From positions 1 through 64,000 of IMG/VR virus record IMGVR_UViG_3300049460_000150: a stretch of 64,000 nt of DNA. One strand, written 5' to 3'. Positions 22,992-44,383 of the stretch are shown here, piece after piece; position 1 is the first letter of the stretch, and the number at the start of each line of letters is the position of its first letter. Position numbers and translations under genes: made by a program. The notes beneath the pieces are model-generated. The model was not told the DNA's origin and did no database searches. It was given only the letters and a program-made list of their open reading frames with translations. The DNA is from a virus.

Positions 22992-23052
22992 GGCGTCGAT
23001 TATAGCAGCGAAAAATATCTCATAAATGAGAGGTTTGGGACGAAAAAGCATA

Positions 23053-27521: not shown

Positions 27522-27723
27522 ATCAGGCCCGTTATATGGTGCAAAATGGTTGCAAAAATTTTTCAAAATTTTTTCCAAAACGTGAGACCTCTATACCCGA
27601 CCCAAGCCCTCGCCACAAGCTCAAAAAAGCCCTATACTCTTAGTCATGCAGTCAGGTAAAGCAAGGTCCCGGAAACGGGACCACGCAAGGCCCCTGCTAA
27701 CCCTATCAATCTGATATAAGGAA

Positions 27724-28548
27724 ATGACCATGAAAACCGCTGTCCAATCCACGCAAGGCCAAGGCACCACTACGTCCATCGACTATACCGTCCTGACGCT
27801 GGCAATCGCAAACGCTGCACTGTCGCGCCGCGCCGCGCTGCACATGGAGCTGGCCGTATCGCTGATTCACTTCACGCAAGAAACGGGCGGCACTGACGCG
27901 ACCGGCAAGGCCAACATGAAGGCCATCTACCATGGCGCGGGTTATCTGTGCATGGCTAAGAGTGACCGCGATTATAAAACGGTTAATCGTCGCTTGAATG
28001 CCATGGCTAAAGTGTTCGATAAAATCGGCTCCAGCACGGTCAACGAATGGATCGAGAACAAAGGCGATACAGATAGTATGCTCGCCTACGTGCAAACTGA
28101 ATTGCTGGCGTATGGCTTCGATACGTTGGATGATGTACTTGATTATGTTGGCGTAGAAACTAACAGAACCCGTGCGCCGCGCCAACCAGCCGCGCCGGTA
28201 GCAATCACGGTCCCGGAAACGGGACCAGCACCGGCAGCAGCAGCAGCGCCAGCGGTAGCAGTTCTGCCAACGTTCGACGCGGCACAAGTGCGCGCTGAAA
28301 TGATGGCTAACATGTCACCCGATGCGATCCGTGAATTCTGCGCGCAAATGCTGGCCGATGTCGCTGCACTGGAGCAAGCACAGATTGACGCTGAAACGGC
28401 AGCAGCAGCAGCGCCAGCAGCAGCAGCAGCAGCAGCAGCACCGGCAGCAGTCGTGCCGATGAATAGCAAGGCACGCAAACAGGCAAAGAAACAGGCGCAT
28501 ATCGCGGCGCAGCAGCAGCAGCAGCAGCAGCAGCGCGCAGCAGCATAA
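27724..28548 (+). CDS. Hypothetical protein, paralogue B, with poly-Ala/poly-Gln tail
   Basis: AAGGA RBS; shared motifs with 26359..27321; GCA/CAG triplet runs at 28399-28440 and 28510-28533. Confidence 0.8.
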   Translation: MTMKTAVQSTQGQGTTTSIDYTVLTLAIANAALSRRAALHMELAVSLIHFTQETGGTDATGKANMKAIYHGAGYLCMAKSDRDYKTVNRRLNAMAKVFDKIGSSTVNEWIENKGDTDSMLAYVQTELLAYGFDTLDDVLDYVGVETNRTRAPRQPAAPVAITVPETGPAPAAAAAPAVAVLPTFDAAQVRAEMMANMSPDAIREFCAQMLADVAALEQAQIDAETAAAAAPAAAAAAAAPAAVVPMNSKARKQAKKQAHIAAQQQQQQQQRAAA

Positions 28549-28629
28549 TGTGGCACGGTAGCGGTCCCGGAAACGGGACCGCATCGCAAGTAAATAACGG
28601 TCCCGTTAACGGGACAGGCACCGGAGGAA

Positions 28630-28752
28630 ATGTACATGCAATGGATCGTGTCTGAATTGGCCGTTTGGCCGCTGTCGCATTTTGTCGGGCTGGCGCTGGA
28701 TGTCGCCGTGATCGTTTGGCTGTGGAAGTCCACGCCTATCCGTTTGAAATAA
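28630..28752 (+). CDS. 40-aa hydrophobic (single-TM) protein
   Basis: Below the ORF-track cutoff. GGAGG RBS; translates to MYMQWIVSELAVWPLSHFVGLALDVAVIVWLWKSTPIRLK; flanked by palindrome copies. Confidence 0.65.
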   Translation: MYMQWIVSELAVWPLSHFVGLALDVAVIVWLWKSTPIRLK

Positions 28753-28786
28753 CGGTCCCGTTTCCTGGACCTTCACCGGAGGATTT

Positions 28787-29032
28787 ATGTCTGAATTCAA
28801 CATGGCCGCATGGCTGAAAAAGCGTTTGGCTGATCCATCGCTTTCGACCACGGAGTATTTACATCACGAGCGTGCTTTGCAGGACATCGAATTTCGCCAG
28901 CGTGTGCTGGACGCGGAGTATGCCCACAAGGAACGTATGCTGGCGCTGGAGGCCGAACAGGCTGATTTCCAGCGCCGCATCGGCGCGGCACATGCCAAAT
29001 TGGACGCGCTCGGCGCTCCGCGTTTTTCGTGA
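28787..29032 (+). CDS. Hypothetical coiled-coil protein
   Basis: GGAGG RBS; flanked by palindrome copies. Confidence 0.75.
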   Translation: MSEFNMAAWLKKRLADPSLSTTEYLHHERALQDIEFRQRVLDAEYAHKERMLALEAEQADFQRRIGAAHAKLDALGAPRFS

Positions 29033-29080
29033 ACAAAACGGTCCCGTTTCCGGGACCGGCACCGTTGAAAGGGTTTCCAA

Positions 29081-29461
29081 ATGGCTGGCATGAGCGACAA
29101 TCCCCTCGTGGGGGACTACACCAAGGGCATTTCCAAGGGTCGGCAATACTTCGTGGAGTTGCGCACGAGGTTCTTCCTTGAGAAAGCTGACCTGAAACAC
29201 GTCACTTTGGACCTCCAAATGGGGCTGTTCAAGGAGGCAAAGGCGTTCACTGACGCTTTCGTGAAGCTGAATCACCTAGACCGTTTTGGGCCGGTGCCGG
29301 TCCCGAAAACGGGACCGAAAAGCGTTGCTTTGCGTTCAACTCCATTGGCGCAGAAGCAACGAGTTATCCACAGGCCGACTTCGACAATTGCGAAAAACGC
29401 AAGCCTGAAAGTTTCTGCGTTGCAAGACATTAGGTTGCTTTACATGCAACTTTGTGGATAA
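29081..29461 (+). CDS. Hypothetical protein (doubtful 3' half)
   Basis: Weak RBS; the 3' half runs through a palindrome copy and DnaA boxes. Confidence 0.4.
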   Translation: MAGMSDNPLVGDYTKGISKGRQYFVELRTRFFLEKADLKHVTLDLQMGLFKEAKAFTDAFVKLNHLDRFGPVPVPKTGPKSVALRSTPLAQKQRVIHRPTSTIAKNASLKVSALQDIRLLYMQLCG

Positions 29462-29584
29462 CTCGCGTTTTTCTGTGGATAGTTTTTCTGGCCCTGTGAA
29501 TAACTTATTTTTGCCTAAAAAATAGGCAGAAAACAGCGTTTTTTGTGGATAAGTCGGTGGATAACGCTAAAAAGCTGTGGATAA
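29364..29584. promoter_or_regulatory. DnaA-box cluster
   Basis: TTATCCACA at 29364; TGTGGATAA at 29453, 29544, 29576; TGTGAATAA at 29495; one-mismatch boxes at 29474 and 29556. Confidence 0.8.
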
Positions 29585-29588
29585 ACCG

Positions 29589-30198
29589 GCTTGATAGTCT
29601 CATCCACTTTCGGGGCGAGCGCCTGAAATTTCGGGTTTTCTGTAACGAATGATGGGCCGAATGGTCTAGACCATTTGTGGTCATTTTGACAGGATTTTTG
29701 GGAGGATGATACTATCATCCCCCCATTTGCTTGCACATCGGACGAGAAAATGCAAGCGCTAAATCTGCCTAAAAATGAGGCAAATCGTTGTGCAGCGCAA
29801 TATTTTGGCCTTTGGATGATAGTCTCATCCCCTTTTGGGGGCCAGGACAGGCACCGGGCGATGGCGAGGTCCCGGAAACGGGACCGGAGCGGCGGGTAGG
29901 AACCACAGGGAGGGGATGCAGACGTGATGGCGATGAAATGGGCTTGGCTTTGCGCTCGATTTTGCGCTCGCTTTTGCGCTCGCTTTTGCGCTCGCTTTTG
30001 CGCTCGATTTCCGATCACTTTTGCCTTCGCTTTTGCGCTTGGTTTGTGGTAAGGGGACGGCACCGGCTTTTCCTTTCCTTTCGTTATCTTCTCTCTTTTT
30101 CTAATTACTCTTTAGGGTTGAAGGGGGGATGATAGTATAAAAGGGTAAAGAGAAAAGAGTTACTTTTAAGAAATAAAGAGAGGATGAGACTATCATCT
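29589..30198. repeat. 17-bp palindrome family GGATGAKA-S-TMTCATCC
   Basis: Copies at 29704 (perfect), 29814 and 30182; partial copies at 29589 and 30127; also at 23053. Confidence 0.85.
29948..30007 (+). repeat. 12-bp tandem repeat (TTTTGCGCTCGC)x5
   Basis: Five adjacent units, with degenerate units continuing to about 30040. Confidence 0.9.
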
Positions 30199-30710
30199 AA
30201 AAAATTCTGGACCCCTGCCGGTCCCGGTCCCGTCGCCAACTAATGCCCAATTTTTAGGCAGTGTTTTCGGTGCCTTTTCCGACCCCAAAAAGTTGCCGAA
30301 AAGTGCATAAAATGCCCCTCAAATTTGCCTAAAATTTGCCTAAAACTTGCCTAAAAATTGAGCATTTCTCGTGCTGCCGATCCACATCCTGATCCACATC
30401 CACATCCAAAATCTGCACCAATTTTCGTTAAGGGGAACATCCATGCGCAACGTCATTCCGACCCAAAAGCGGTCATCACTTTTAGCCTCCCTCACCCGCC
30501 CAATTTCCATACCCGCCTGGGTGCCCATTTTCATCACCCTCACCAACATGGTTTCCATCACCATTTTGGTCATCGCCAACCGAGACATCTTCGCAGCATG
30601 GTTCCACGGCTAAATGCAAGGGGTAAAGCTGCCGCCCTCCCACTGCCCGGTCCCGTTTCCGGGACCCGCCACAACCCTGGCCCCAGCATGGACCCCCAAA
30701 GCGATCAGAA

Positions 30711-30739
30711 TCGCCCACAGGGCGTTTTTGGCTTATAAT
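30711..30739 (+). promoter_or_regulatory. Putative early promoter
   Basis: TCGCCC-N17-TATAAT; a similar TCGCCA-N17-TATACT lies at 27610-27638. Confidence 0.45.
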
Positions 30740-30813
30740 GAGTACCGTTCCACCACTGGCTCCATAATCGCCACCTGAGCGGTTTTAGAGCCTTCTAACA
30801 AAGGAGTGACAAA

Positions 30814-31161
30814 ATGACATCCCACCACACTACCCCGGCCCCGGCCCCGGCCCCGGCCCGGGACGAGACCGTTTCCAACCCCCGCGCCCACCACCTCGGC
30901 CATCGCCTTTACCTCTCCCCTTTGGCGGCGATTAAATCCATACTCCCGGCCACCACTTTTTACGCGCCCAATTTCGCCTCCAAATGCCAAGACACGCTCA
31001 TGGAAATGACCGAACCATTCGATGGTGACGATTTGTTCGTCGCCCTCAACCTCCTGGCCCTCTCGGAAGGCATCCTGCTTTATCGCTTTTACGAGCCGCA
31101 AATTACCACCCTCAATCACGCCGTCACCATCATCAAATACTACGCAATAAGGAAGCCTTAA
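30814..31161 (+). CDS. Hypothetical protein
   Basis: AAGGAGTGACAAAATG start; N-terminal PAPAPAP encoded by (CCGGCC)n. Confidence 0.7.
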   Translation: MTSHHTTPAPAPAPARDETVSNPRAHHLGHRLYLSPLAAIKSILPATTFYAPNFASKCQDTLMEMTEPFDGDDLFVALNLLALSEGILLYRFYEPQITTLNHAVTIIKYYAIRKP

Positions 31162-31163
31162 AA

Positions 31164-31721
31164 ATGGCTATTTCAAGCCCAAAACCACCAAAGCCGCCGA
31201 AGCCAGCACCCAAAGTCAAGCCCACTGGCCGTAAGACCTCCTGGCCCACTAAAATTGACGCACCACCGGAGGCTCTTGCACTGTACGAAATGATCTCGTC
31301 CCTGCAACACAGCACGGCGTTCAAGACTTGCCACCCATATCAAGGTGCCACCAGCAAAAATACGGGCATTCCGATGTTCAAGTTTGAAGGGCGAGTCCAT
31401 GCGATGCCTTACATCATCTGTTCCTTCATGGGAATCGAGTACGGCACCCGTAACTGCAAAACCTACGGCTGCATGAACCCTTTCCACTATTCGCCTCCAC
31501 CGCGAATTTCGGGGGCGCAAATGGCCCATATTGACCTGCCAATGCCAACGCTGGCACCGGACTATCACGACCTCCTGGAATACTACGTCGAGGAAGTGGG
31601 AATACAGCCCAATTACACCGCACTTCGCGCTGCAATTCCCACTGACGACATCAGTGACGCCGCCTTGCGGGCGGCAGTGCAAGCTTGGCCCGGTCCCGGT
31701 CCCGGAAACGAGACCCTTTAA
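31164..31721 (+). CDS. Degenerate HNH/His-Me finger-like protein
   Basis: CHPYQGA...CKTYGCMNPFH resembles the Zn-binding CxxxxCxNPxH motif of HNH-type endonucleases. Confidence 0.5.
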   Translation: MAISSPKPPKPPKPAPKVKPTGRKTSWPTKIDAPPEALALYEMISSLQHSTAFKTCHPYQGATSKNTGIPMFKFEGRVHAMPYIICSFMGIEYGTRNCKTYGCMNPFHYSPPPRISGAQMAHIDLPMPTLAPDYHDLLEYYVEEVGIQPNYTALRAAIPTDDISDAALRAAVQAWPGPGPGNETL

Positions 31722-31743
31722 GTCCCCCACCCCAGGAGTAATC

Positions 31744-32088
31744 ATGAACGTCCTCACCTTTAGCACCATCGGGCTGCAAAATCCGAACGTCACCACCACC
31801 AATTACACCGCCATCCAACACGCTGGCGTCGTCTTCACCCTCATCAACGGGGAAACGCACGTTTCCGTGGCCCAGCCGGACCAGAAACCGGACGGCTTTG
31901 CCGTGTATGGTCGCAGCCCAGAGGGTATGGCTGAGTGGATCGCTGATTTCGATAGCGAATTGCACTCGATGCTCTTTGCATCCACTCTGTCCTACGTCAT
32001 GGGCGTGCCAATCGAGGATAAAGTCTTCAACGTGGACGCCATTTCTGCGGCAATCTTCACCCTCAACAATCAAGGGCAACCGAACTAG
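31744..32088 (+). CDS. Hypothetical protein
   Basis: AGGAG RBS before ATG 31744, just after a palindrome copy. Confidence 0.7.
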   Translation: MNVLTFSTIGLQNPNVTTTNYTAIQHAGVVFTLINGETHVSVAQPDQKPDGFAVYGRSPEGMAEWIADFDSELHSMLFASTLSYVMGVPIEDKVFNVDAISAAIFTLNNQGQPN

Positions 32089-32146
32089 CCATGGGCTAAA
32101 GCCGTTTCCCCCTAATCTTCTAACCCTTTTCCTATAGGAATACTCA

Positions 32147-32434
32147 ATGAGTCTCGGTCAACGTAAAATGCGCGCCAAAGCTGATGCCTTGGCACCCTCT
32201 GTTCTGATCTGCGGCCACCGTGGCATGGAGTGGATCGTCATCACGGGTGGCGGTTTCAGCACCCATTTCTACTACGGCAAAGAGGGACCCAACGGTCCCG
32301 TTTCCGAGACCAATACCGGCCTCTTGGCAAGCGTCTCGGACGACTTCAAACCATGGGCCAAGAAACTGCTCAAGGATTACAACAATTTGAGGACTCAAAA
32401 TGAGAACAAAGTTCCAGTTAAGCGCCGAGCCTAA
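32147..32434 (+). CDS. Hypothetical protein
   Basis: AGGA RBS; contains a palindrome copy in frame (GPVSET). Confidence 0.65.
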   Translation: MSLGQRKMRAKADALAPSVLICGHRGMEWIVITGGGFSTHFYYGKEGPNGPVSETNTGLLASVSDDFKPWAKKLLKDYNNLRTQNENKVPVKRRA

Positions 32435-32660
32435 CGAAGTGCATCTGATCCGCAACGCGAACTTTAAAAAGATTGCGGTGCTGATCCCATGCAATAAGGA
32501 CGATGAGGTTCGTGAGCTGGTGTCCATGATCGAAAAAGGACCCTTTCCTGGCTTCCAAAACGTCACAAACTGCACAACCGCTGGCCCCAGTGTTCACCTC
32601 AGTTTTGCCAGCGCCGATGATGCTCGTGCTTTCTTCAACTTTATCTGGAGTACCCAATAA
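32400..32660 (+). CDS. Hypothetical protein
   Basis: GAGGA RBS; coupled to the next ORF. Confidence 0.65.
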   Translation: MRTKFQLSAEPNEVHLIRNANFKKIAVLIPCNKDDEVRELVSMIEKGPFPGFQNVTNCTTAGPSVHLSFASADDARAFFNFIWSTQ

Positions 32661-33058
32661 TGGAACTCTATTACAAACCTGACGCCTCCTTTGTTGGCGT
32701 CGGCGCGACCATCAAGACCCAATCCTGGGGCCTCGTTTACATCACCCAGATAGAATACCCAAAGGTTACGATCCGTTTCCAAACCGGACGCACCTTGACC
32801 AGCGATGCCGGGACCTTTGGTTGCGAGTGGCGTAGGACGCAAGAGGAAATAGACGCGGCTGTCGCCGAAGCCCGTACTAATCGCCAGCCAACAATCTGGG
32901 CCGTTGCCGTGCCACTTTTGGTTGAGGGTCAAGACATCCATGAAGTGCGCCAAATCCTGGCCGAGTTGTTCGCAGGACTCCAGCACAGCAATGTGGTATC
33001 CATCAACACGGAAGTGTCGGGCATCAGTACCGGCGTTTATCGGGGAGACTTGGAATGA
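32660..33058 (+). CDS. Hypothetical protein
   Basis: TAATG coupling; GGAG RBS. Confidence 0.65.
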   Translation: MELYYKPDASFVGVGATIKTQSWGLVYITQIEYPKVTIRFQTGRTLTSDAGTFGCEWRRTQEEIDAAVAEARTNRQPTIWAVAVPLLVEGQDIHEVRQILAELFAGLQHSNVVSINTEVSGISTGVYRGDLE

Positions 33059-33285
33059 AAATCTTTGCCAATCTGTTCGGCTCTCGTGAACCACACGAAG
33101 CCATGGGGCGCATGATCGAAGAAACGCTCGATGAATCACGAGCGCAACTGTTCCAGACCCGTCTGGAAAAGGAGCGCGTACTTAGCGATGAATCGAAGCT
33201 CATGCGCCGCATCGAACGCCTCGAAAAAGAGGAAAAAGAACACGCCGAAAAGCGTGAAGCCCAAAGGGCCTCAACCCTGCTGTAA
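33055..33285 (+). CDS. Hypothetical coiled-coil protein
   Basis: ATGA overlap; followed by a palindrome copy. Confidence 0.65.
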   Translation: MKIFANLFGSREPHEAMGRMIEETLDESRAQLFQTRLEKERVLSDESKLMRRIERLEKEEKEHAEKREAQRASTLL

Positions 33286-33336
33286 AGGGTCCCGGAAACG
33301 GGACCATAACACCACCTTATCCAAAGGATAATAGCC

Positions 33337-33789
33337 ATGAACACCCTCTCCCAAGAGAACATCAAGAAAACCTACTTCGGTGTCGTCACAGATATCAGCG
33401 AGATTTTCGAGCGCTTCCTGTACTGCCACGATGCCACCTTTCACCCAGACCGTGGAAGCCTCACGCCGCGCCCTGAAGGCTTCTATTTCTGCCCCGGTCG
33501 CGGCACGACTGTCGAAACGTGGCTGAATTGGGGAAAGCCGCGCCCTAAATCGGGCAATCTGTCGGTCAAACCGACCTACAAAGTCGCCACCGCTGTCTTG
33601 AAGCGATCCATGGAGGGCAAAATCGGCGGTTTTCAGATCATACCCTGGGAACACGCTGGTCACGCCCTCATCATTGGCAGTGACAGCACGGGAATTGCCT
33701 CTGTTTGGCTGGCGTTTATCCCGCTGGACAAACTCCCGACGATCAATCAGGACAACACGCCCATCTGGGACGGCAAAGCCGATGTCTAA
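33337..33789 (+). CDS. Hypothetical protein
   Basis: AAGGA RBS. Confidence 0.7.
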   Translation: MNTLSQENIKKTYFGVVTDISEIFERFLYCHDATFHPDRGSLTPRPEGFYFCPGRGTTVETWLNWGKPRPKSGNLSVKPTYKVATAVLKRSMEGKIGGFQIIPWEHAGHALIIGSDSTGIASVWLAFIPLDKLPTINQDNTPIWDGKADV

Positions 33790-34219
33790 ACCGACTCCTG
33801 ATAACCCCTCGCGCCGTGCCATGGCCCGCGTCCCGAATCCCCTGCCAATTCCCACCAATTGCCCGCACTGCGGCGCTCTGGTCTTTTGTGTAGGCAACCA
33901 AACGATCTATGGTAGGCCGTTTGGTGACTGGCCGTACGCCTACCAATGTGCACGCCCCTCCTGTGGGGCCTATGTCGGCCTGCATCCGTTCACAAACTAC
34001 CCACTTGGCACGCTGGCGGATGAGCAAACTCGTCGCGCTCGAAGTCTCGCCAAGGATTACTTCAACCCACTGTGGAAAAACCGGGTCATGACCCGCACCG
34101 AAGCCTATGCCTGGCTTGCGACCGTCATGAATCTCCCACCTGAGCTGTGCCATTTCGGCCTGTTCAACGTGGACCAGTGCAGCGCCGCAGTTAAACACAT
34201 CATGGAGCGTACAAAATGA
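33782..34219 (+). CDS. Zinc-finger protein, DUF3268-like
   Basis: CPHCG...CGAYVGLHP...PLGTLAD...RTEAYAWLA...CHFGLF pattern. Confidence 0.75.
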   Translation: MSKPTPDNPSRRAMARVPNPLPIPTNCPHCGALVFCVGNQTIYGRPFGDWPYAYQCARPSCGAYVGLHPFTNYPLGTLADEQTRRARSLAKDYFNPLWKNRVMTRTEAYAWLATVMNLPPELCHFGLFNVDQCSAAVKHIMERTK

Positions 34220-34752
34220 CTCAAAATTTCGACACAAAAGAGAACCGCGCCAAGCAGTTTAAGCGCGGCCTCCGCGATGCCAAGACTGCCCAAGTCCCGT
34301 TTGGTCAATCCAACGAGCTGGGAACCGTCGCCACGAATCTGGATCGCGCCTACCGCAAGGGCTGGATTGCGGGGCGCAATGAAGATACCCACCTCACGCC
34401 GCCTATCCCGAACATCAAAACATCGGGCCGTTTGCACTGGCTGAAATACTTCCACGAGTTGACGCCCAAAGAGCGGGCCGAACTCGATTACATCACCGAT
34501 GACACCAACTCCTTCCTGCGCCACCAAGGTCATGTGTACGACCTGGGTGAGTTTTCGCGCATCATCCCGCCCGAAGAAATCGGCACGCGCCATCTGCATC
34601 CTATGTGCCTGCACGACTGGCACGGCGACTACGACAACTGGGACGCCTACCTGGGCGATTCGGCTTTTAGCATGGTCCTCATCCGTTATGAGCGTGACAG
34701 CAGCGGCGACATCAACGCCGAACGGGCCGTGATCGGACACGCATCATGGTAA
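34216..34752 (+). CDS. Hypothetical protein
   Basis: ATGA overlap; GGAG RBS. Confidence 0.65.
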   Translation: MTQNFDTKENRAKQFKRGLRDAKTAQVPFGQSNELGTVATNLDRAYRKGWIAGRNEDTHLTPPIPNIKTSGRLHWLKYFHELTPKERAELDYITDDTNSFLRHQGHVYDLGEFSRIIPPEEIGTRHLHPMCLHDWHGDYDNWDAYLGDSAFSMVLIRYERDSSGDINAERAVIGHASW

Positions 34753-35015: not shown

Positions 35016-35058
35016 CGGTCCCGTTTCCGGGACCTTTCCACTTCAAAGGAGTAACACC

Positions 35059-35247
35059 ATGAAATCACAGAATGGTTACGTGTTTTTCTACGGCAGCAAG
35101 CGCGTCGAACTGTACGCCGACAGCCTGTATGCGGCAAAGGTGGCGGCAATTGCGCATTTCAAAGCGCCGAAGTCGAAGCAACACATGGTCCACGGCGCAC
35201 TCGCTGAAAAAGCGGGAAGCGCCGTGATCCACACGCCAACGGAATAG
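35059..35247 (+). CDS. Hypothetical protein
   Basis: AAGGAG RBS; bracketed by palindromes at 35017 and 35246. Confidence 0.7.
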   Translation: MKSQNGYVFFYGSKRVELYADSLYAAKVAAIAHFKAPKSKQHMVHGALAEKAGSAVIHTPTE

Positions 35248-35297
35248 TCCCGTTTCCGGGACCTCACCTCACCACAACCTTTAAACGGAGTGACAAA

Positions 35298-35591: not shown

Positions 35592-35595
35592 CAAA

Positions 35596-35907: not shown

Positions 35908-35909
35908 CC

Positions 35910-36173: not shown

Positions 36174-36174
36174 C

Positions 36175-36432: not shown

Positions 36433-36489
36433 CCCACGGTCCCGGTCCCGTTTTCGGGACCACACGCACACATTTTTTCGGAGAATAAT

Positions 36490-36999: not shown

Positions 37000-37047
37000 C
37001 ACATAAGGGTCCCGTTTCCGGGACCTTTCCATATCAGGGAGAACGTC

Positions 37048-37586: not shown

Positions 37587-37588
37587 CC

Positions 37589-37978
37589 ATGGCACGCATC
37601 TCAAACAGCCTGTCTCCGGCGCGTAAAGGGGACAAGATCGTTATCGAAGTCGGAAGCGAGCGCTATTGGGGCAACACCATCGCGCTTGCCAAGGCCGACA
37701 TGAAGGAGCGCAACCGGGGCGTGGTCACGGCCCCATCTTTCAAGGTCTGGTCTTCCGGCACAAGCGCCCCGCCTATTCTGCTGCAAGAGAACGGGCAAAA
37801 GCAGCCGACATCGGCGCTGCCGCTGTCGGTGGTCTGTCCGCTGTGCAAAGCGGGCCTCGCCCGACCCTGTATCAATGACAAGGGTGTCGTACTGCTGGAC
37901 AAGCCACATAAAACACGCATTCTGCTGGCGCGTAAAATGCTGCTGGCACCATCGAAAAAACGGAGCAAGAAAAAATGA
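37589..37978 (+). CDS. Basic protein with C-terminal zinc finger
   Basis: CPLCKAGLARPC...PHKTR. Confidence 0.6.
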   Translation: MARISNSLSPARKGDKIVIEVGSERYWGNTIALAKADMKERNRGVVTAPSFKVWSSGTSAPPILLQENGQKQPTSALPLSVVCPLCKAGLARPCINDKGVVLLDKPHKTRILLARKMLLAPSKKRSKKK

Positions 37979-38664
37979 AAACCTCTCTCTACATCTGCGA
38001 GAAAGTCCACCGCGACTATCGCCCCATCGGCCCGTATTACCCACCCGTTACAGAGGTGGAGGACTACGAAAACACCGTCAGCATCCGCGCTGCCATGAAG
38101 GGCGCGGGACCGTACAAGACATGCACCTATCAAGGCCCTCTGTCAGCCTGGAAGGGCAAGACAGCGCTCACCGTCCCGCTGGTCGCGGTGCAATTCGATG
38201 ACCAGGGCCAGTACATGGCCTACGGCTGGCACCTGTTCAATGCCAACGACTGGAAGGTCCCGGAAACGAGACCTCTTTTCCAGGCGTTTGCCAGCGCCGT
38301 CGTGGCGCTTGCCAACTGCATCAAGAACGGCAATCAAGAATGGTATCGCATTTGGAACGATTGCCTCGACGGCTGGTGCAAGAACTACATGCCGAGCGGT
38401 TCTGGCTTCGACAACGGCACGCAAATCGACCTGGAAGCGTCAGGCGAACACAAGCTGGTCTTCAACGTACACTACCACCACATGGACGAGCATGGTTGCT
38501 ACGACGGCTGGACCGAGCATCAGGTGATCGTGACGCCAAGCCTTTTGTTCGGCTTTACGCTGCGCATCACCGGCCCGAACCGCAACGAGATCAAGGACTT
38601 CATCTCGGACACCTTCCATATCGCACTTTCCCAACAGGTGAATCCACACGAGTACAAGCCATGA
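37975..38664 (+). CDS. Hypothetical protein, possibly a two-gene fusion
   Basis: A palindrome copy at 38256 is read in frame (KVPETRP) mid-gene. Confidence 0.65.
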   Translation: MKTSLYICEKVHRDYRPIGPYYPPVTEVEDYENTVSIRAAMKGAGPYKTCTYQGPLSAWKGKTALTVPLVAVQFDDQGQYMAYGWHLFNANDWKVPETRPLFQAFASAVVALANCIKNGNQEWYRIWNDCLDGWCKNYMPSGSGFDNGTQIDLEASGEHKLVFNVHYHHMDEHGCYDGWTEHQVIVTPSLLFGFTLRITGPNRNEIKDFISDTFHIALSQQVNPHEYKP

Positions 38665-39032
38665 ACCAGCAACGTTTCCCATCGGTGGTGAAACTGATGG
38701 AAGTCTTCAACGACGAAGCCACGGCACTCATGGCGCGAAAGGTGATGGAAATGTCGCGGGGCGAACTGCTGCGCACTGATGCAGGACGTTTCCGTGCCAA
38801 CGAGTGCCTTAATCCCCCGCCGCTGAATGATCTCCGTATGTACGTTATGAACAGCCTTGACCCTGGCCTGTTCGGTATCGAAACTGAGGAAATCAAGAGC
38901 GAGTATTTCGACTACCTCAATGCCGGGGATGCGTATAACCCGACGGTCATCCTGTGGCGCGGAAAGTTTCGCGTCCAGGATGTGGCAACTTTCCGCGAAC
39001 GAAATGAAAGGCTGGTGCGCAATGAAAACTAG
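38661..39032 (+). CDS. Hypothetical protein
   Basis: ATGA overlap; YLNAGDAYNPTV motif. Confidence 0.65.
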   Translation: MNQQRFPSVVKLMEVFNDEATALMARKVMEMSRGELLRTDAGRFRANECLNPPPLNDLRMYVMNSLDPGLFGIETEEIKSEYFDYLNAGDAYNPTVILWRGKFRVQDVATFRERNERLVRNEN

Positions 39033-39384
39033 CCACCAAAGCGGCAAGGCTATGCTTAGTGTAGAGAGGGATGGTGACGATCTGTACGCCAGCGCTTTCG
39101 CCCTCACTGGTTTGCATACAGAAGCCGCGCATTGTTGGTTTGGTGATGCCGTCTCTGATCTAGCCGTTTTCCACGACTGGATTCCGGCACAGTGCTTTCG
39201 TATGAAGGAGGGGGACAAGATGATCTTCAAGGTCAACTTTGAACAGACCTACTACCAAGGGGATGGTTACACCAGTGACGACGATGAACTTTTGGTGTTC
39301 ACCAAGGCGGTGAAGTTGTATCACAAGCGCGGGGCCAAAGCGTCCCGTAAATCGCTCAAGAAATATTACAGGAGTGCGCAATGA
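39022..39384 (+). CDS. Hypothetical protein
   Basis: Overlapping operon arrangement. Confidence 0.55.
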   Translation: MKTSHQSGKAMLSVERDGDDLYASAFALTGLHTEAAHCWFGDAVSDLAVFHDWIPAQCFRMKEGDKMIFKVNFEQTYYQGDGYTSDDDELLVFTKAVKLYHKRGAKASRKSLKKYYRSAQ

Positions 39385-39836
39385 ATCCTAAATACCAAAG
39401 GGGGCCTGACGGCAACTGCATCCCCGGCGATGCCGTCACGTATGCAGCGTATGGTCCCATCCCCGAAGCTTACGCTTTCCAAAACGAGGTGGGCGGCGTC
39501 GAAGTTCCCGCCATCGTCCACCACTGGGGCTGGTCCACGACCTTTGGCCGCTGGGGCGCTGTGGTCACGTTCAAGAGCGGATGGCATGGCTTTACGTGGC
39601 CTTTCATCCGCCTGGGCGAATTCCCTTTCCAGACTGTGGAAGTGGAACCATTCCCAGGCTTAACCTTGACCATTTACGGTCGCGTCAAGGCCGTCACCCA
39701 GCCGGAGAAACTTCAGCAGGGTTACTACGTCGCCAAAGGCGGCATACCGATCCCTCGCTCGGAGCTGTACCGCGACGAGCGCGATGCCATCGAAAAAATC
39801 CTGCATGAAAGGTATCCCGAACATGCCAACCTTTAG
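39381..39836 (+). CDS. Hypothetical protein
   Basis: AGGAG RBS; ATGA overlap. Confidence 0.65.
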   Translation: MNPKYQRGPDGNCIPGDAVTYAAYGPIPEAYAFQNEVGGVEVPAIVHHWGWSTTFGRWGAVVTFKSGWHGFTWPFIRLGEFPFQTVEVEPFPGLTLTIYGRVKAVTQPEKLQQGYYVAKGGIPIPRSELYRDERDAIEKILHERYPEHANL

Positions 39837-40032
39837 CACAGGCAGATCGCCACCGCTCGTATCGCATGTCTTTGGACAGCCAAGGCAGCGCTACATCCAA
39901 TGCCCTCATTGCTGTGAGCAAGTCTTTCTTCCAGCGGGGGCGTTTCGCGGCCAACAATTTACGCACACCGATGGGAAATGCGGCGGCGTTTTTGAGGTCT
40001 ACTGGAACGCTAAAATTTGCGTTCGAACCTGA
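39823..40032 (+). CDS. Small Cys-rich (Zn-ribbon-like) protein
   Basis: CPHCC...CGGVF. Confidence 0.5.
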   Translation: MPTFSTGRSPPLVSHVFGQPRQRYIQCPHCCEQVFLPAGAFRGQQFTHTDGKCGGVFEVYWNAKICVRT

Positions 40033-40043
40033 AAGGAAACGCC

Positions 40044-40229
40044 ATGGACATCATCCGCCATTACGGAATGACCCGCGAAGAGTTTGCCAGCAAGCTTGGC
40101 AAGCATCCGTCCTGCTTTGAAAATTTCTTACGGCCTTTGTGCAATAACGGCAGCTATCACGCTTACACCACGCGGGATAAAGCGCTTGTCAATTGCCCAG
40201 AATGCCTAAAACGTTTGAAGGGGAAGTGA
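40044..40229 (+). CDS. Small Cys-rich protein
   Basis: AAGGA RBS; VNCPECLKRL. Confidence 0.6.
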   Translation: MDIIRHYGMTREEFASKLGKHPSCFENFLRPLCNNGSYHAYTTRDKALVNCPECLKRLKGK

Positions 40230-40230
40230 A

Positions 40231-40551
40231 ATGAAAGCAGTCGTAGAATTTGGCCGACCACAATCGGCCCTCCCCGCTGGCGCACCGTGCGGCGTTTCAG
40301 GCCATCAGACTTGCGAATCACTGGCGGCGGCTAACCACCTCGCCCTGCATTTGCGCCATGTGCTGGGGAATCGGCAGCATGAGTACCACGGCCCCGATGA
40401 CTTTCTCGTGTCGCGGGATAACCCGCGCATTGTGTGGTGGGCCAATGACCATTCCTGCTGGGTGGCAGTGACGATTTTCAAGCCTAATTACGAACCTGGA
40501 CCTTACGCGGCCCAGGCCGACAAATTTGCCAAAATAGCGAAGGAGCTGTAA
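40231..40551 (+). CDS. Hypothetical protein
   Basis: GGGGA RBS; coupled to the next ORF. Confidence 0.6.
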   Translation: MKAVVEFGRPQSALPAGAPCGVSGHQTCESLAAANHLALHLRHVLGNRQHEYHGPDDFLVSRDNPRIVWWANDHSCWVAVTIFKPNYEPGPYAAQADKFAKIAKEL

Positions 40552-41135
40552 TGCGCAACGTACCAACACCAATCCAGTATCAGGCGCTCATTGATTATGC
40601 CGCCGCTAACGGTTTCTACTGGAAGCACAAACTCAGCACGGCGTGGATGAACGGCACCGACACGCCTTTGCTGCGCCAAATACGCAACGAATTCGGACCC
40701 GGCTGGCTCACGAAATTCAAGCTGCGCACCTACCGCCTGGAACAGATTTCGGAAGTGGCGAAACACTACATCCTTGCCGCCATCTGGGCCGACGCGCCGG
40801 AAGGCACGCAACCTCGCGCCTCGCAAGAGACCCAGGAGGAAGCCTTTCGCCAGTGCGCAAAGTTCATCATGGAATGCGGCCCTCTGTTCGACGCTGCCAT
40901 GGCGCGTTTCGAACGTGGCTACGGCACGCATCCAGACGCGGGCAGTGCAGAGGCCGCTTTCGGCCACGACTTCTGGCTGACGCGGCAAGGCCATGGGGTT
41001 GGCTTCTGGGACCGCAAGGAACTGGGCAAGGAACTGGGACAAGCTTTGACCGACGCGGCCCATGCAAGGCGCGAGGCCAATTACGAGTTCTACCGTGGCT
41101 GGTTCTACTTGAGGGCTGATTATGAAGCCCGGTGA
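40551..41135 (+). CDS. Hypothetical protein
   Basis: AAGGAG RBS; GHDFWLTRQGHGVGFWDR motif, familiar from other phage hypothetical proteins. Confidence 0.75.
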   Translation: MRNVPTPIQYQALIDYAAANGFYWKHKLSTAWMNGTDTPLLRQIRNEFGPGWLTKFKLRTYRLEQISEVAKHYILAAIWADAPEGTQPRASQETQEEAFRQCAKFIMECGPLFDAAMARFERGYGTHPDAGSAEAAFGHDFWLTRQGHGVGFWDRKELGKELGQALTDAAHARREANYEFYRGWFYLRADYEAR

Positions 41136-41313
41136 TACCATCACGTTCCGCCATTACGGCGTCGAAAAGACTGAGACCATCGGGCGCATCAGTCCTGATG
41201 GCACAATCGTCTACACGACGATGTGCCGCTGGCTGCACAAGGAAAGCATTTTGTCCGTCAACAACGTTCCCGTTTCCGGGACCTCAACCAAGGAGAAGAA
41301 AGATGAAATTTGA
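41122..41313 (+). CDS. Hypothetical protein
   Basis: GAGG RBS; ends across a palindrome copy. Confidence 0.55.
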   Translation: MKPGDTITFRHYGVEKTETIGRISPDGTIVYTTMCRWLHKESILSVNNVPVSGTSTKEKKDEI

Positions 41314-41821
41314 TCCAAAATATCCGGCGCGCACCAAGGGCGGCGAGACTGTCGCTTTCCTTACCACGGAATCGCGTGATCCAAAGTTCCCGTACATCGG
41401 CTACGTCGGCGATGAGGACACGCTGACCAAATGGGACAAGGATGGCGCACCACAATATGGGTCCACCTACGACAACGGCTCGCTGGAAAACATCCCGTTT
41501 GAAGGCGTGGTTTACATCGCCATTTACTCTGACGGGAAACGCACCGGGACCTACACGCACTTGATCCCACGAGGCATCCCAAACGTAAGCGAAATGCACC
41601 TCCCGTTGGTGTCCGTCCTCCGCCTACCCTATTCGGTCATGCCTGGAGTGCAGGACCATATCACAACCCTGCTGGCGGAAGCGGAGGCGCTGAAAGAGGA
41701 AATGGCCGCGCTGCCAACACTTGGCGGCATCGTTGACGAATTCGCGGACATCAAACCGCCGAAACCACCCGAAGGTCCGTCGCCGATCCATGACCCGTGG
41801 GGTCTCGGAAAAATGCCGTGA
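41303..41821 (+). CDS. Hypothetical protein
   Basis: AAGGAG RBS before ATG 41303. Confidence 0.65.
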   Translation: MKFDPKYPARTKGGETVAFLTTESRDPKFPYIGYVGDEDTLTKWDKDGAPQYGSTYDNGSLENIPFEGVVYIAIYSDGKRTGTYTHLIPRGIPNVSEMHLPLVSVLRLPYSVMPGVQDHITTLLAEAEALKEEMAALPTLGGIVDEFADIKPPKPPEGPSPIHDPWGLGKMP

Positions 41822-41922
41822 AAAAGTTGAGCATGGACGCCCTCACGAACTGGGGCGATCCCGCCGTGCGCAAACAGTTCGTTCCACCTCCACCACCTCC
41901 CAAACCTCCGAAGGAGTATCAA

Positions 41923-42744
41923 ATGTCCCAGCTCGCCGAACAGCAAGAAGTTGTTCAACAACTCAACCAGATCATCCGCATTTTCAAGAACTCTAAGGGC
42001 GCGATTCGCCCGCACTTCATGATGACCGGCCCCAGCGGTTCCGGTAAGTCCTTCCTGACCGAAGAACTGGCCGATGAACACGATCTGGCCTTCCTGGAAA
42101 TCAACGCGGCCCAGCTCACCAAGGAAGGCACGGCTGGCAACAGCCTGTCCAAAGCGCTGACGCCACTGACCGGCAAGAGCGCCCAGTTGACGCTGTGCTT
42201 TGTCGATGAATTCGACAAGCTGTTCATCAGCGGTAACACGAACTCCCAGCTCGCCCACGAGACCACCAACGGCGTGCAAAACGAGTTCCTGAAAGTGCTG
42301 GAATCGAAGACCACCTCGGTGTATGGCGAGTACGGAAAATACCATGACGTGAACGTGAACAACGTGTTGTTCGTGTTCGCCGGGGCCTTCAACGGCGAAG
42401 AAGACTTGACGATCGATCGCCTCCGCGACTTCGGCATCAAGACCGAATTCCTGGGCCGCGTCGGTCTGGTCTACAACCTGAAAAAGCTGTCGCTGGAATC
42501 GATGCGCGCTGCGCTCGAAAACAGCCCTTTGCTCGCCCGCTACCTGGGCTTGTTCCAGAAGGCGCAGAAGGCCGATGTAGTGGCCGCGCTGATGCCTTAC
42601 ATCGCCAAGCACTTCGACAAGAACACGCTGGGCATCCGCATCATCAACACGCTGCTGCACCAGTATTTCATCAACGGCGGCAAGCTGCCGGTGCTGGCAA
42701 CGGAGAACCTGGCCTTCCAGACTTCCATGGAACTGGCCTCGTAG
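41923..42744 (+). CDS. ClpX/HslU-like AAA+ ATPase (minimal)
   Basis: GPSGSGKS, FVDEFDK, GVQNEFLKVLE, NVLFVFAGAF and FGIKTEFLGR match ClpX-family motifs; AAGGAG RBS before ATG 41923. Confidence 0.85.
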   Translation: MSQLAEQQEVVQQLNQIIRIFKNSKGAIRPHFMMTGPSGSGKSFLTEELADEHDLAFLEINAAQLTKEGTAGNSLSKALTPLTGKSAQLTLCFVDEFDKLFISGNTNSQLAHETTNGVQNEFLKVLESKTTSVYGEYGKYHDVNVNNVLFVFAGAFNGEEDLTIDRLRDFGIKTEFLGRVGLVYNLKKLSLESMRAALENSPLLARYLGLFQKAQKADVVAALMPYIAKHFDKNTLGIRIINTLLHQYFINGGKLPVLATENLAFQTSMELAS

Positions 42745-42783
42745 GGTCCCGGAAACGGGACCCTCTAATATAAGGGGAATTTT

Positions 42784-42996
42784 ATGAAGACCACACAAGA
42801 CGGATTCCACACGATGCGCGGCCACGTCGCGGATGGTTGTGAGATTGCGATGGCTAACGGCGACACGCTGACGCTCAAGGCCGTCATCAACGGCTGGCAA
42901 CTGGTCGATCAAACCGGGCGCAATTTCGGCCTCGCCACCAACTCGGCGCACGTCATCGCGTGCCTGGTATTTGCCCATCCTTCGGAGGACATCTAA
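42784..42996 (+). CDS. Hypothetical protein
   Basis: AAGGGG RBS after a palindrome copy. Confidence 0.65.
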   Translation: MKTTQDGFHTMRGHVADGCEIAMANGDTLTLKAVINGWQLVDQTGRNFGLATNSAHVIACLVFAHPSEDI

Positions 42997-43292
42997 TGCT
43001 CACCACACCACGCAATCGCCTGCTGACGCATGGGCGCAGCTCCAAGACGTACATGGCCTGCATGGACACGCTGTACGAAACCGCCGACGCCGAACTCAAT
43101 TCGGACGAGACCGTTCACGATGAGTTCCACCGGCTGCGGGCGAAGTACAGGACTTTTACTAAATCGTTTATACGGTTTATACGGCCAAAGGTTTTGGCTA
43201 TCAACAGCCGCGACAAGCTGGGCATTTTCGAGGAACAAGTCACGACTGTTTGCGAGCAAATTTACAAGGACTGGGAGAGGGTCACACCATGA
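42996..43292 (+). CDS. Hypothetical protein
   Basis: GGAGG RBS; TAATG coupling. Confidence 0.65.
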   Translation: MLTTPRNRLLTHGRSSKTYMACMDTLYETADAELNSDETVHDEFHRLRAKYRTFTKSFIRFIRPKVLAINSRDKLGIFEEQVTTVCEQIYKDWERVTP

Positions 43293-43798
43293 AGCCAGCT
43301 AAGACCAAGCGCGACGAGTTTTTCAAGGACCTGTCGGCGCAAAAGCGCGTGGATAACGGGACGATCCGCGCCCTCAAAATCTACTTCAACAATCGCCAGC
43401 ACTCACCCAATAAGGAGCGCTACGAGCGCTTGAACCTGCTGCCCACGCTCGGCCCATATCGCCTGGAGATGCAGTGCGAGGCCGACTACATGCACCTGTT
43501 GACCAAAGCGTGTTACATCAACCCAGACTCCAAACATGAGGTATGGCGCAACACGGAATTCACGCGCTTCTTCGGCACCCAGCAACGCAACATCATGAAC
43601 GACCGCCACAGCCTGTATCTGGTGGACTTCCAAGACGAGCAAACGGACGGCAGCGCCAAGTGGGAACGGCGCAACCATCCAGACTGCGAAGCAGGCTTCT
43701 TTGTTCCCATTTATGAGATGCGTGACAGCAGTGGCAATTCGTTCCAATTTATCATCCGCTCGTGGCAGCAGGGCGGCGACCGTATCACCATCGTTTAA
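43289..43798 (+). CDS. Hypothetical protein
   Basis: ATGA overlap; GAGG RBS. Confidence 0.65.
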   Translation: MKPAKTKRDEFFKDLSAQKRVDNGTIRALKIYFNNRQHSPNKERYERLNLLPTLGPYRLEMQCEADYMHLLTKACYINPDSKHEVWRNTEFTRFFGTQQRNIMNDRHSLYLVDFQDEQTDGSAKWERRNHPDCEAGFFVPIYEMRDSSGNSFQFIIRSWQQGGDRITIV

Positions 43799-43810
43799 GG
43801 AGCCTCAAAA

Positions 43811-44125
43811 ATGAAAGCCAAAATGTTTGCATACCTGACGCAACAGGACATGCACATCCTGTCGGCGGAAGACCTCAAGGACGTTGAGAAGGTTTCCAAG
43901 CGCGTCTACCTGTCATCGCACGACATGAGCGCCCAGGGTTGGGTGTTGGTCGGCCACGTTGAAGCCGACATCGAAATCCTGCCGCCTAACGCTGTGGTCG
44001 AAAACGCTGTGGTTGCGTTCCGCGCCAAGGCCACGGAAATCCGCGCCAAAGCGACGGCGGAATGCACCCAGCTCGAAGGGCTGGTCAACCAACTGCTTGC
44101 CATCGAAAATGGGGTGCAACCGTGA
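43811..44125 (+). CDS. Hypothetical protein
   Basis: AAGGAG RBS. Confidence 0.7.
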   Translation: MKAKMFAYLTQQDMHILSAEDLKDVEKVSKRVYLSSHDMSAQGWVLVGHVEADIEILPPNAVVENAVVAFRAKATEIRAKATAECTQLEGLVNQLLAIENGVQP

Positions 44126-44346
44126 AACAGATCGGCGAACCTAAAACCACCACGGCCCGCAACGGTTTGGGCCACGACGCAACCAGCACGCGGACGAACT
44201 ACGTGATCGAAAAAAGCGATGTCGGCATGACGCGGGAAAACTACCGTGGCAAAGGGCATTCGCAATACACGTTCGAAGGCTCGGACGTGGGCAAGGAAAT
44301 CGCAGTCTACACGGACGGCACCGGCTGGACGTGCTGGGTATTTTAA
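44122..44346 (+). CDS. Hypothetical protein
   Basis: GTGA overlap; stop directly abuts the last palindrome copy. Confidence 0.6.
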   Translation: MKQIGEPKTTTARNGLGHDATSTRTNYVIEKSDVGMTRENYRGKGHSQYTFEGSDVGKEIAVYTDGTGWTCWVF

Positions 44347-44383
44347 GGTCCCGTTTTCGGGACCTCTAACAACGGAGTGACAA

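Follow-up and report, generated by a model that had tools for sequence, protein, structure and literature searches.

The uncultured phage genome of 79,112 bp (IMG/VR record IMGVR_UViG_3300049460_000150), whose first 64,000 nucleotides form the window that was analyzed, carries an array of the palindrome GGTCCCG-N4-CGGGACC in an early region of 17 kb. At its start the array borders on the primase gene and on an origin-like region that contains DnaA boxes. Thirteen copies are exact and seven have one arm mismatch (starting at 28599, 28754, 31698, 32294, 35246, 38256, and 41266), so the count of 20 given by the first-pass annotation stands if one-mismatch copies are included, but the exact pattern accounts for only 13. 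All 20 lie within 27665-44364, and the annotation's statement that no full copy exists elsewhere holds for the whole genome; the sole leftovers are an arm-only doublet at 30220 and a two-mismatch relic at 47067-47084, within gene 46512-47480, a gene whose homologues in relatives stand where the palindrome region ends. Shuffled sequences gave expectations of 0.00 exact copies and 0.30 matches with up to two mismatches, and the packing of 20 of 20 copies into 21% of the genome has a P of ~3e-12. The arms are identical in 13 copies and the 4-bp center is A/T-rich, with a recount reproducing the earlier tally (GAAA in 8, TTTC in 8, TTTT in 2, AAAA in 1, and TTAA in 1). On the coding strand 9 centers are A-rich and 10 are T-rich, with all genes on one strand. 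The sites are thus real, confined to the early region, and free in orientation.

The array opens with three exact GAAA copies, the first (27665-27682) intergenic and 47 nt ahead of the start of gene 27730-28548, the second (28209-28226) within a low-complexity part of that gene, and the third (28563-28580) 14 nt past its stop at 28548. Three consecutive junctions then share a unit of 37 nt, ribosome-binding site included; they hold a one-mismatch TTAA copy at 28599-28616 (13 nt ahead of the start at 28630), a one-mismatch TTTC copy at 28754-28771 (stop 1 nt upstream, next start 15 nt downstream), and an exact TTTC copy at 29040-29057 (stop 7 nt upstream, next start 23 nt downstream). The last of these forms a 26-nt inverted pair, flanks included, with the exact AAAA copy at 29299-29316, which lies in a weak ORF. 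Exact copies follow at 29868-29885 (GAAA), in the non-coding origin-like region, and at 30649-30666 (TTTC), 35 nt downstream of the stop at 30613. The arm variant CGAGACC recurs in three one-mismatch copies, at 31698-31715 (GAAA; in the last codons of ORF 31164-31721, with an extra GGTCCC before it at 31692), 32294-32311 (TTTC; within gene 32147-32434), and 38256-38273 (GAAA; encoding KVPETRP in the linker of gene 37975-38664). Six further exact copies stand just past stop codons: 33288-33305 (GAAA; stop 2 nt upstream, next start 31 nt downstream), 35017-35034 (TTTC; 1 and 24 nt), 36444-36461 (TTTT; 11 and 28 nt, with an extra GGTCCC before it at 36438), 37008-37025 (TTTC; 8 and 22 nt), 42745-42762 (GAAA; abutting the stop of an AAA+ ATPase gene, next start 21 nt downstream), and the last copy of the array at 44347-44364 (TTTT; abutting a stop, next start 19 nt downstream). 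The one-mismatch TTTC copy at 35246-35263 overlaps the stop of gene 35059-35247, and that at 41266-41283 lies near the end of gene 41122-41313, with an overlapping start at 41303, 19 nt downstream.

By context, 13 copies lie between genes, 6 lie within genes, and 1 overlaps a stop codon, an intergenic excess with a P of ~5e-7 in a region that is 15% non-coding. Palindromes fill 11 of the 13 short gaps (34 to 101 nt) of the region, and none of the similar short gaps further along the same strand carries one. Within a gap the typical position is 0 to 14 nt past the stop and 13 to 49 nt ahead of the next start; the ten copies first listed as lying within 14 nt of a stop are indeed 0 to 14 nt away or overlap it. 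The palindromes stand between blocks of translationally coupled genes, and their flanks are not conserved. "Cassette boundaries," as they had been called, is therefore apt as a description, but a cassette mechanism was not demonstrated. Promoter-like matches numbered 11 against 9.9 expected, and none recurs beside the copies. In agreement with the annotation, no + strand copy passed the U-tract test, whereas the canonical terminators at 26143 and 27350 did; a hairpin of -12 to -14 kcal/mol lacking a T-run on the + strand does not make an intrinsic terminator.

The phage is of the JWF/Lumi type, and its relatives comprise Achromobacter phage JWF, Xylophilus phage Lumi, and several uncultured genomes; close relatives show 77-85% primase identity. 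Each of the relatives examined in full carries a palindrome of its own, found only in the 13 to 19 kb downstream of the primase gene: GGTGGGG-N4-CCCCACC in G001 (11 copies), GGGGGAA-CA/TG-TTCCCCC in G002-G004 (10-11 copies), TTTCCCCGGCCGGGGAAA in G005 (8 copies), GGTTCGT-W-ACGAACC in JWF (10 copies), and RTTACT-N5-AGTAAY in Lumi (14 copies). In Lumi and JWF this region sits at the physical end of the genome. A scan of 185,579 species genomes found the motif in multiple copies in none and only scattered single matches. At least 22 early genes are common to G001 and G004, and different palindromes occupy at least 6 of their orthologous junctions. Syntenic copies in sister lineages are 96-99% identical, compared with 83-95% for the flanking ±60 nt. 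As judged by these sequence comparisons, the palindrome array is a family trait, which is new relative to the observation in a single genome, and the equivalent sites in relatives are under sequence selection, lineage specific, and changing in concert. That the palindromes of this region differ in sequence between relatives makes a lineage-specific factor their probable reader.

We favor, at a rough probability of slightly under 40%, the view that the copies are sites at which a candidate dimeric DNA-binding protein, co-evolving with them, acts on the early operon. A putative phage-encoded dimer, made early, would occupy the ~20 sites at gene-block boundaries of the 17-kb operon, and once bound it would act as a block or insulator to host RNA polymerase, shutting off or grading early transcription, for instance. 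The array would then correspond to the stoperators of Cluster A mycobacteriophages, but with symmetric sites limited to one region. We infer all three parts of this proposal, namely, the protein nature of the reader, its binding to duplex DNA, and its effect on transcription. Both center orientations (9:10), with genes on one strand, are predicted by a symmetric dimer that reads the duplex but not by an RNA reader touching the loop. The feature common to the relatives is dyad symmetry rather than hairpin strength, since predicted RNA folding energies are -12.3 to -13.8 kcal/mol for this phage, -5.8 for JWF, and -1.4 to -4.1 for Lumi. In addition, 4 of 4 transition variants (G to A on the + strand) disrupt pairing in + strand RNA, which argues against selection for an mRNA hairpin. 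There are precedents: the authors of the Cluster O mycobacteriophage study inferred a dimeric binder for its 7-N3-7 repeat (PMC4351075), and stoperators are placed in short intergenic gaps with a motif that tracks the reader (PMC6550527, PMC9283540).

A double-stranded site for a dimeric protein had been one of the annotation's two suggestions, and it gains from the orientation freedom, the selection, the concerted change, and the separate palindrome of each relative, but no binder was found. Helix-turn-helix, ParB, and repressor matches were all absent from the ~90 proteins scanned against Pfam or PHROGs, as was ParBc, with ~25 small ORFs outside the scan; likewise, neither database recognized a repressor or integrase, and no lysogeny module was found. 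The one DNA-binding-type match is a borderline zinc-finger domain (37589-37978) that relatives are without. No co-varying protein can be named because the early genes are not common across lineages. We note that the sites lie in gaps between stop codons and ribosome-binding sites, not at promoters, which speaks against this proposal. Extended to JWF/Lumi-like siphophages at large, the proposal is more tentative still: a fast-evolving phage factor may punctuate the early operon by reading one lineage-specific palindromic word at block boundaries throughout the 13 to 19 kb after the primase gene, with word and reader switching together at lineage splits. Such punctuation would be a stoperator counterpart in phages showing no lysogeny module.

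A somewhat less likely alternative, with several points on its side, is that the palindromes act as hairpins in polycistronic early mRNA, where they would stop 3′ exonucleases or serve as processing or attenuation points. Each gene block would thereby get its own mRNA stability and dosage, and the stem may be recognized by an RNA-binding protein or a nuclease of the phage or host. Consistent with this, 14 of the 20 copies overlap a stop codon or come 0 to 14 nt after one, before the ribosome-binding site that follows; of the region's 13 short gaps, 11 are occupied; the predicted folding is strong in this phage; and an RNA stem reads identically from either DNA orientation. A conserved AU-rich leader lies downstream of the palindromes in G001 and G004 and is kept despite the palindrome change. 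The base-paired form is further favored, against a duplex reader, by the GC-rich 6- to 7-bp stems with 4- to 6-nt loops in G001, G004, and G005, even at 44% GC, by unique flanks that add 7-8 bp to the stem of some copies in the relatives L055, L058, L068, and L072, and by the 16-nt and 18-nt forms of G004, in which pairing is restored in a shifted register. However, structure alone requires neither identical sequences within each genome nor a concerted switch between genomes. Constraint on the center acts at the DNA level, whichever its orientation, and the stable GAAA loop is not in excess on the coding strand. Moreover, 0 of 7 variant copies retain pairing via G-U in + strand RNA, Lumi's equivalent sites hardly fold, the missing U-tract means that these are not canonical terminators, and an Rfam scan of 22500-48000 gave 0 matches at E<=1.

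That the palindromes are a recombination scaffold or a selfish element, providing microhomology for swapping small gene cassettes in the manner of PeSL elements or spreading by themselves into tolerant gaps in the manner of REP elements, with any cellular function secondary, is improbable. Several features point this way: the 37-nt unit with its ribosome-binding site at three consecutive junctions, the inverted copy that brings its flank along, the extra GGTCCC half-arms at 31692, 36438, and 30220, and the orthologous junctions of G001 and G004 at which only one genome has a palindrome. Deletions in Cluster O phages arose by recombination between repeats (PMC4351075), and in T4-type phages PeSLs are agents of shuffling (PMC2839356). 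Raw ends of homology breaks near palindromes were also abundant (56 against 8.6 expected), but this enrichment vanished with gene junctions as the control. In three sister groups, palindrome junctions were breakpoints no more often than other junctions (14/18 versus 47/60, 4/10 versus 30/72, and 3/12 versus 5/28), a result that, within sister lineages, goes against the annotation's second suggestion, that of a recombination site by which genes are gained and lost. The one intragenic copy that was tested, at 38256, aligns gap-free to homologues of the same length that keep the KVPETRP peptide, and it is therefore not an 18-bp insertion. The annotation had seen no recombinase in the window, and we likewise found no transposase, RAYT, or site-specific recombinase among the ~90 proteins scanned; the recombination genes present are general ones (an SbcCD-like pair, a Holliday-junction resolvase, and exonucleases). 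Copies are without target-site duplications and are conserved beyond their flanks, and no genome of the species collection has the motif in multiple copies.

Least probable, and very unlikely, are hairpins or cruciforms in single-stranded or supercoiled DNA, e.g., on the template strand, which would serve a protein of replication or repair as signals to prime, pause, or load near the origin-like region; the array begins beside that region and the primase gene, the phage encodes an SbcCD-like palindrome nuclease, and three variant copies here and most 18-nt variants of G003 and G004 retain G-T pairing on the minus strand only, but the 17-kb array reaches far past any origin, placement tracks gene boundaries, the strand bias comes from few and maybe not independent events, and stable DNA hairpins are not expected of the Lumi sites.

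The fixed genome position and the sequence turnover between lineages make the question of function testable. The cultured phages JWF and Lumi open the array to transcript-end mapping and pulldowns, and pairs of the G001/G004 type are swaps already made by nature, from which the reader could be traced. A reader, if there is one, would form with its site a compact, orthogonal pair controlling a long operon and would explain the organization of ~40 small early genes without assigned function.

Among known systems, an integron attC array does not fit, as no tyrosine recombinase was found and the sites are 18-bp perfect dyads rather than imperfect attC sites of 57-141 bp. REP/BIME elements are likewise extragenic palindromes after operon stop codons, in both orientations and species specific, and REPs can stabilize upstream mRNA. 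They are, however, 20- to 40-nt imperfect chromosomal palindromes mobilized by RAYT transposases, whereas the sites here are 18-bp perfect dyads, some intragenic and in frame, with no RAYT or Y1_Tnp match in the scanned proteins and only single scattered matches in the species genomes. KorB O_B operators of plasmid RK2 and other ParB-type sites comprise about a dozen palindromes of 13-16 bp dispersed over a replicon and read by a dimer, and in KorB-type sites the central base is either of two. In contrast to these, the present sites are at gene ends, not promoters, and the scanned proteins showed no ParB/KorB-type domain. PeSLs of T4-type phages combine a sigma-70 promoter with a terminating stem-loop and demonstrably recombine (PMC2839356). 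Like them, the palindromes are repeated stem-loop elements among small non-essential early genes of a fast-changing region, but no promoter accompanies the palindrome and sister lineages show no excess of breakpoints.

The stoperators of Cluster A phages such as L5 and Bxb1 are 20-30 short sites that stop transcription elongation and whose motif tracks the repressor (PMC9283540, PMC6550527). Both systems place an array mostly in short intergenic gaps of lytic operons, with a motif that varies between lineages. Stoperators are 13 bp, asymmetric, oriented with transcription, spread over both genome arms, and read by the monomeric immunity repressor of temperate phages, whereas the sites here are perfect dyads in both orientations (9:10), lie in the early region only, and come with no repressor or lysogeny module found. 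The nearest published analogue is the 17-bp repeat of Cluster O mycobacteriophages, TGTTCGG-NNN-CCGAACA, whose function has been without explanation since 2015 (PMC4351075). Its publication makes "undescribed system," the annotation's term, an overstatement. The word and the host are unrelated, with no phage homology, the spacer is 4 nt here and 3 nt there, and the Cluster O copies spread over the whole genome, whereas these are limited to one region; recombination between copies is documented for Cluster O, while here it was tested in relatives only and not supported. The two systems share 7-bp invariant inverted arms, a short A/T-rich center in both orientations whatever the direction of transcription, dozens of copies chiefly in short intergenic gaps with some intragenic, and absence from the host. 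Repeated palindromes without assigned function have been reported in few phage groups only, and here an array of the Cluster O kind is part of the conserved architecture of a whole family, two members of which, JWF and Lumi, are in culture.

Searching the window for GGTCCCG-N4-CGGGACC returned 13 exact matches, and permitting one arm mismatch added 7 further copies. The first-pass annotation had counted 20 copies between 27665 and 44364, a total that holds when one-mismatch copies are included but not for the exact pattern; its tallies of the central four bases were reproduced (GAAA 8, TTTC 8, TTTT 2, AAAA 1, and TTAA 1). Shuffling gave an expectation of 0.00 exact matches and 0.30 matches at ≤2 mismatches. 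The earlier statement that no copy lies outside the array also holds for the rest of the phage genome, which is 79,112 bp long, has the window as its initial 64 kb, and carries a 127-bp repeat at its ends that may reflect overlap in the assembly; apart from the array, the only traces of the 18-mer were a relic with two mismatches at 47067 and, at 30220, a doublet of arms alone. Beyond this phage, the exact 18-mer appeared only as scattered single matches in the IMG/VR and GTDB genomes scanned and, among the matches listed, in JGI metagenomes. None of 185,579 species genomes held it in multiple copies, and megablast against cultured phages found no match to the array region.

The structural genes of the phage occupy the minus strand, where terminase (21204-23051) is followed by portal, capsid, a tape measure protein of 1850 aa, and tail fiber, and plus-strand genes begin at 23.1 kb. 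The latter encode a primase-helicase (23679-26120), ∼45 small proteins almost all without a Pfam or PHROGs match, a helicase, DNA polymerase A, exonucleases, a Holliday-junction resolvase, an SbcCD-like pair, a ligase, and thymidylate synthase. The ∼90 proteins scanned included neither an integrase nor a repressor, ParB, transposase, or RNA polymerase. A small AAA+ ATPase (Pfam AAA and AAA_2; phrog_5534) is encoded mid early region at 41923-42744, with a palindrome abutting its stop codon. We also noted three exact tandem 13-bp units (GGGGCCTGGAGAG) at 27475-27518, in the gap ahead of the first palindrome, and a (GGCCCC)n run at 30836-30857, at the start of gene 30814-31161 in a C-rich stretch; GC skew across 30-32 kb is -0.22. 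Ranked by primase similarity, the relatives include Xylophilus phage Lumi (62%) and Achromobacter phages JWF and 2-1 (∼53%), with Caulobacter phage Seuss and several Acinetobacter phages in addition, and closer relatives with primases 77-85% identical exist. The palindromes go unmentioned in the Lumi and TCUP2199 papers.

With genes called by a codon-usage model, 13 of the 20 copies fall between genes, one overlaps a stop codon, and the other six lie inside genes. Because only 15% of the region is noncoding, this is an intergenic excess with P ∼5e-7. Ten copies had been described as close to stops or overlapping them; in ten cases an intergenic copy follows a stop codon at a distance of 0-14 nt, and the next start follows an intergenic copy by 13-49 nt. 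Within 27.3-44.6 kb there are 13 gaps measuring 34-101 nt, of which 11 contain a copy, and the remaining junctions overlap or nearly abut, and the copies therefore divide blocks of translationally coupled genes. Same-strand gaps of 30-160 nt at 44.6-70.6 kb contain none. The reported lack of a U-tract was likewise seen here, as no plus-strand copy is followed by a T-run, while canonical terminators occur at 26143 and 27350. We rejected minus-strand terminators, since only 5 copies have a T-rich tail on that strand and upstream A content is inconsistent, and N4-type hairpin promoters for a virion RNA polymerase, since the two giant proteins are the tape measure protein and tail fiber and the sites lack a fixed orientation.

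We then compared 80 related loci, three full relatives, and the Lumi and JWF records. The scan of relatives suggested by the first-pass annotation recovered a palindrome array in the same region, but its sequence differs by lineage. Each lineage has its own palindrome, here called its word, which in the seven relatives searched over their whole records is confined to 13-19 kb on the downstream side of the primase gene, with no copy elsewhere in the genome. The word is GGTGGGG-N4-CCCCACC in the uncultured relative G001 (11 copies), GGGGGAA-CA/TG-TTCCCCC, plus 18-nt forms, in uncultured relatives G002-G004 (10-11 copies), TTTCCCCGGCCGGGGAAA in a further one, G005 (8 copies), GGTTCGT-W-ACGAACC in JWF (10 unique copies), and RTTACT-N5-AGTAAY in Lumi (14 unique copies); further groups, represented by 22-kb loci only, have GGTTCAA-S-TTGAACC, TGCGC-N5-GCGCA, and similar words. 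Several JWF copies occupy annotated gaps of 19-44 nt among the early genes. On the JWF coding strand (NC_029075.1, 68996-81402), seven of the eight early-gene copies have A as the center base and the remaining one has G, while the two copies close to the terminal repeat have T, a pattern unlike the mixed center orientation of the window phage. A homologue of gene 46512-47480 marks where the palindrome region ends in each lineage. The terminal repeats of Lumi and JWF sit immediately downstream of primase, which makes the palindrome region a genome end with inward transcription. The hairpin energy predicted for the words spans -14 to about -1 kcal/mol across lineages, and the property common to them is dyad symmetry rather than hairpin stability.

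In three comparisons of sister genomes, syntenic copies were more conserved than their ±60-nt flanks (96.8% versus 86.8%, 96.2% versus 82.9%, and 99.1% versus 95.3%). We conclude that the palindrome array is real, highly nonrandom, confined to the early region, and under selection. G001 and G004, which have at least 22 early genes in common, carry different words at no fewer than six orthologous junctions and keep the leader downstream of the swapped words (AATTAACTT ... GGAAATTGACGATG); at a few orthologous junctions, the palindrome is present in one genome only. Identity within genomes, turnover between genomes, and selection on sequence jointly indicate a sequence-specific reader, that is, a factor recognizing the palindrome. 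Homogenization among copies is a less likely explanation of the identity and turnover. The leader itself (AATTAACTT, 6-15 nt, GGAAATTGACGATG) precedes most early genes in G001 and G004 (loci L282-L290), with or without an upstream palindrome, and may serve there as a promoter specific to the phage or as a cassette for translation initiation.

Our leading, still tentative reading (probability about 0.38) is that the copies are duplex-DNA sites for a dimer. The dimeric-protein site proposed earlier gains from the sequence selection and the orientation-free center, but no helix-turn-helix, ParB, or repressor protein was found among the ∼90 proteins. Duplex sites are further supported by a center restricted to A/T-rich sequence in either orientation, by the Lumi sites, with their AT-rich arms and free N5 spacer, and by the maintained sequence identity of the copies. 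Moreover, none of the seven variant copies retains pairing via G-U in plus-strand RNA. The intragenic variants at 31698, 32294, and 38256 have one G-to-A change in common on the plus strand (CGAGACC), independent of loop orientation and reading frame; in plus-strand RNA it creates a C-A mismatch, on the minus strand a G-T wobble, and so it would pair on the minus strand only. The 18-nt variants in G003 and G004 mostly show the same strand bias.

That the copies instead act as RNA hairpins we regard as rather unlikely. A base-paired form would fit their location between a stop codon and the following ribosome-binding site, the GC-rich stems even in relatives at 44% GC, the unique 7-8-bp stem extensions of some copies (related loci L055, L058, L068, and L072), and the 16-nt and 18-nt forms of G004, in which pairing is regained in a shifted register. 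As RNA, the window element is predicted to fold at -12.3 to -13.8 kcal/mol; no Rfam family matches.

Recombination or selfish elements are an improbable explanation. The 37-nt junction unit common to 28592, 28747, and 29033, the inverted copy at 29292 with its flank, and additional GGTCCC half-arms do suggest local duplication and inversion in the window phage. However, no site-specific enzyme is evident, and the raw enrichment of homology-break ends near palindromes (56 versus 8.6 expected) was a gene-boundary effect, withdrawn because the junction-controlled test gave no excess: breakpoints fell at 14/18, 4/10, and 3/12 palindrome junctions versus 47/60, 30/72, and 5/28 palindrome-free ones. 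Palindrome junctions in sister genomes thus break as often as others. Overall, the idea of cassette recombination is weakened and that of a protein site strengthened. At 38256 the copy is translated as KVPETRP within a linker of gene 37975-38664; homologues with 50-61% identity have KVPETRP, KVPEKRP, or KVPETGP in these columns, the last of which could be encoded by a perfect palindrome, and distant homologues have a linker of equal length. This copy therefore did not arise by insertion of 18 bp, and the window phage probably shares its word with its closest relatives. The ∼125-aa C-terminal domain of this gene has no Pfam family and >500 homologues in phages and bacteria, mostly stand-alone proteins of 125-140 aa; its invariant motifs (PSGSGFD, FHHMD, YDGWTEH, and VTPSL) suggest an enzyme. 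A structure in single-stranded DNA is the least probable of the four readings of the copies, and a very unlikely one; the rest of the probability is given to no particular reading.

We also weighed individual proteins as readers. The zinc-finger protein 37589-37978 was rejected as a reader for the whole family, since it is missing from five relatives, and G001, G004, and G005 all lack the gene annotated 'DNA topoisomerase' (phrog_6247, 54367-55257). The primase operon opens with a conserved gene for 176 aa whose helices are highly conserved across lineages, which does not suit a lineage-specific reader. The tandem paralogues 26359-27321 and 27730-28548 are not supported as readers of the 18-mer, as they have their sole homologues in related locus L036, which is without the 18-mer and has the other palindrome of the window phage, GATGATACTATCATC. 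This second palindrome, GGATGATA-C-TATCATCC, is unrelated to the 18-mer; it lies at 23053-23069, in the intergenic stretch from which the terminase and primase operons diverge, and at 29704-29720, 29813-29829, and 30182-30197, in an origin-like region. Among 82 relatives' loci, L036 alone shares it, and since the paralogues also co-occur with it only there, the two proteins are candidate binders of the second palindrome. The copy at 29704 overlaps the -10 element of the region's best sigma-70-like promoter (TTGACA-N16-GATACT, 29686). The origin-like noncoding region spans ∼1 kb (29360-30440) and holds at least four perfect DnaA boxes (TTATCCACA/TGTGGATAA; 29364, 29453, 29544, and 29576), 5-8 tandem 12-bp units (TTTTGCGCTCGC; 29937-30057), TGCCTAAAA repeats, and a run of pyrimidines succeeded by one of purines.

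Among known systems, the repressor of phage phiC31 binds conserved inverted repeats in the early region, which we take as a lead only. PeSLs require a promoter and display recombination (PMC2839356); no promoter accompanies the window copies, and the sister genomes gave no excess of breakpoints at palindromes. Stoperators resemble it in array layout, intergenic placement, and lineage-specific motifs, but they are asymmetric and oriented and have the immunity repressor as reader (PMC6550527, PMC9283540). The nearest published likeness is the Cluster O mycobacteriophage repeat TGTTCGG-N3-CCGAACA, with 34 copies, an A/T center in both orientations, and a function that is unknown (PMC4351075). The window array belongs to a kind of phage element that is already known though little understood, found here in a new family in which its position is conserved.
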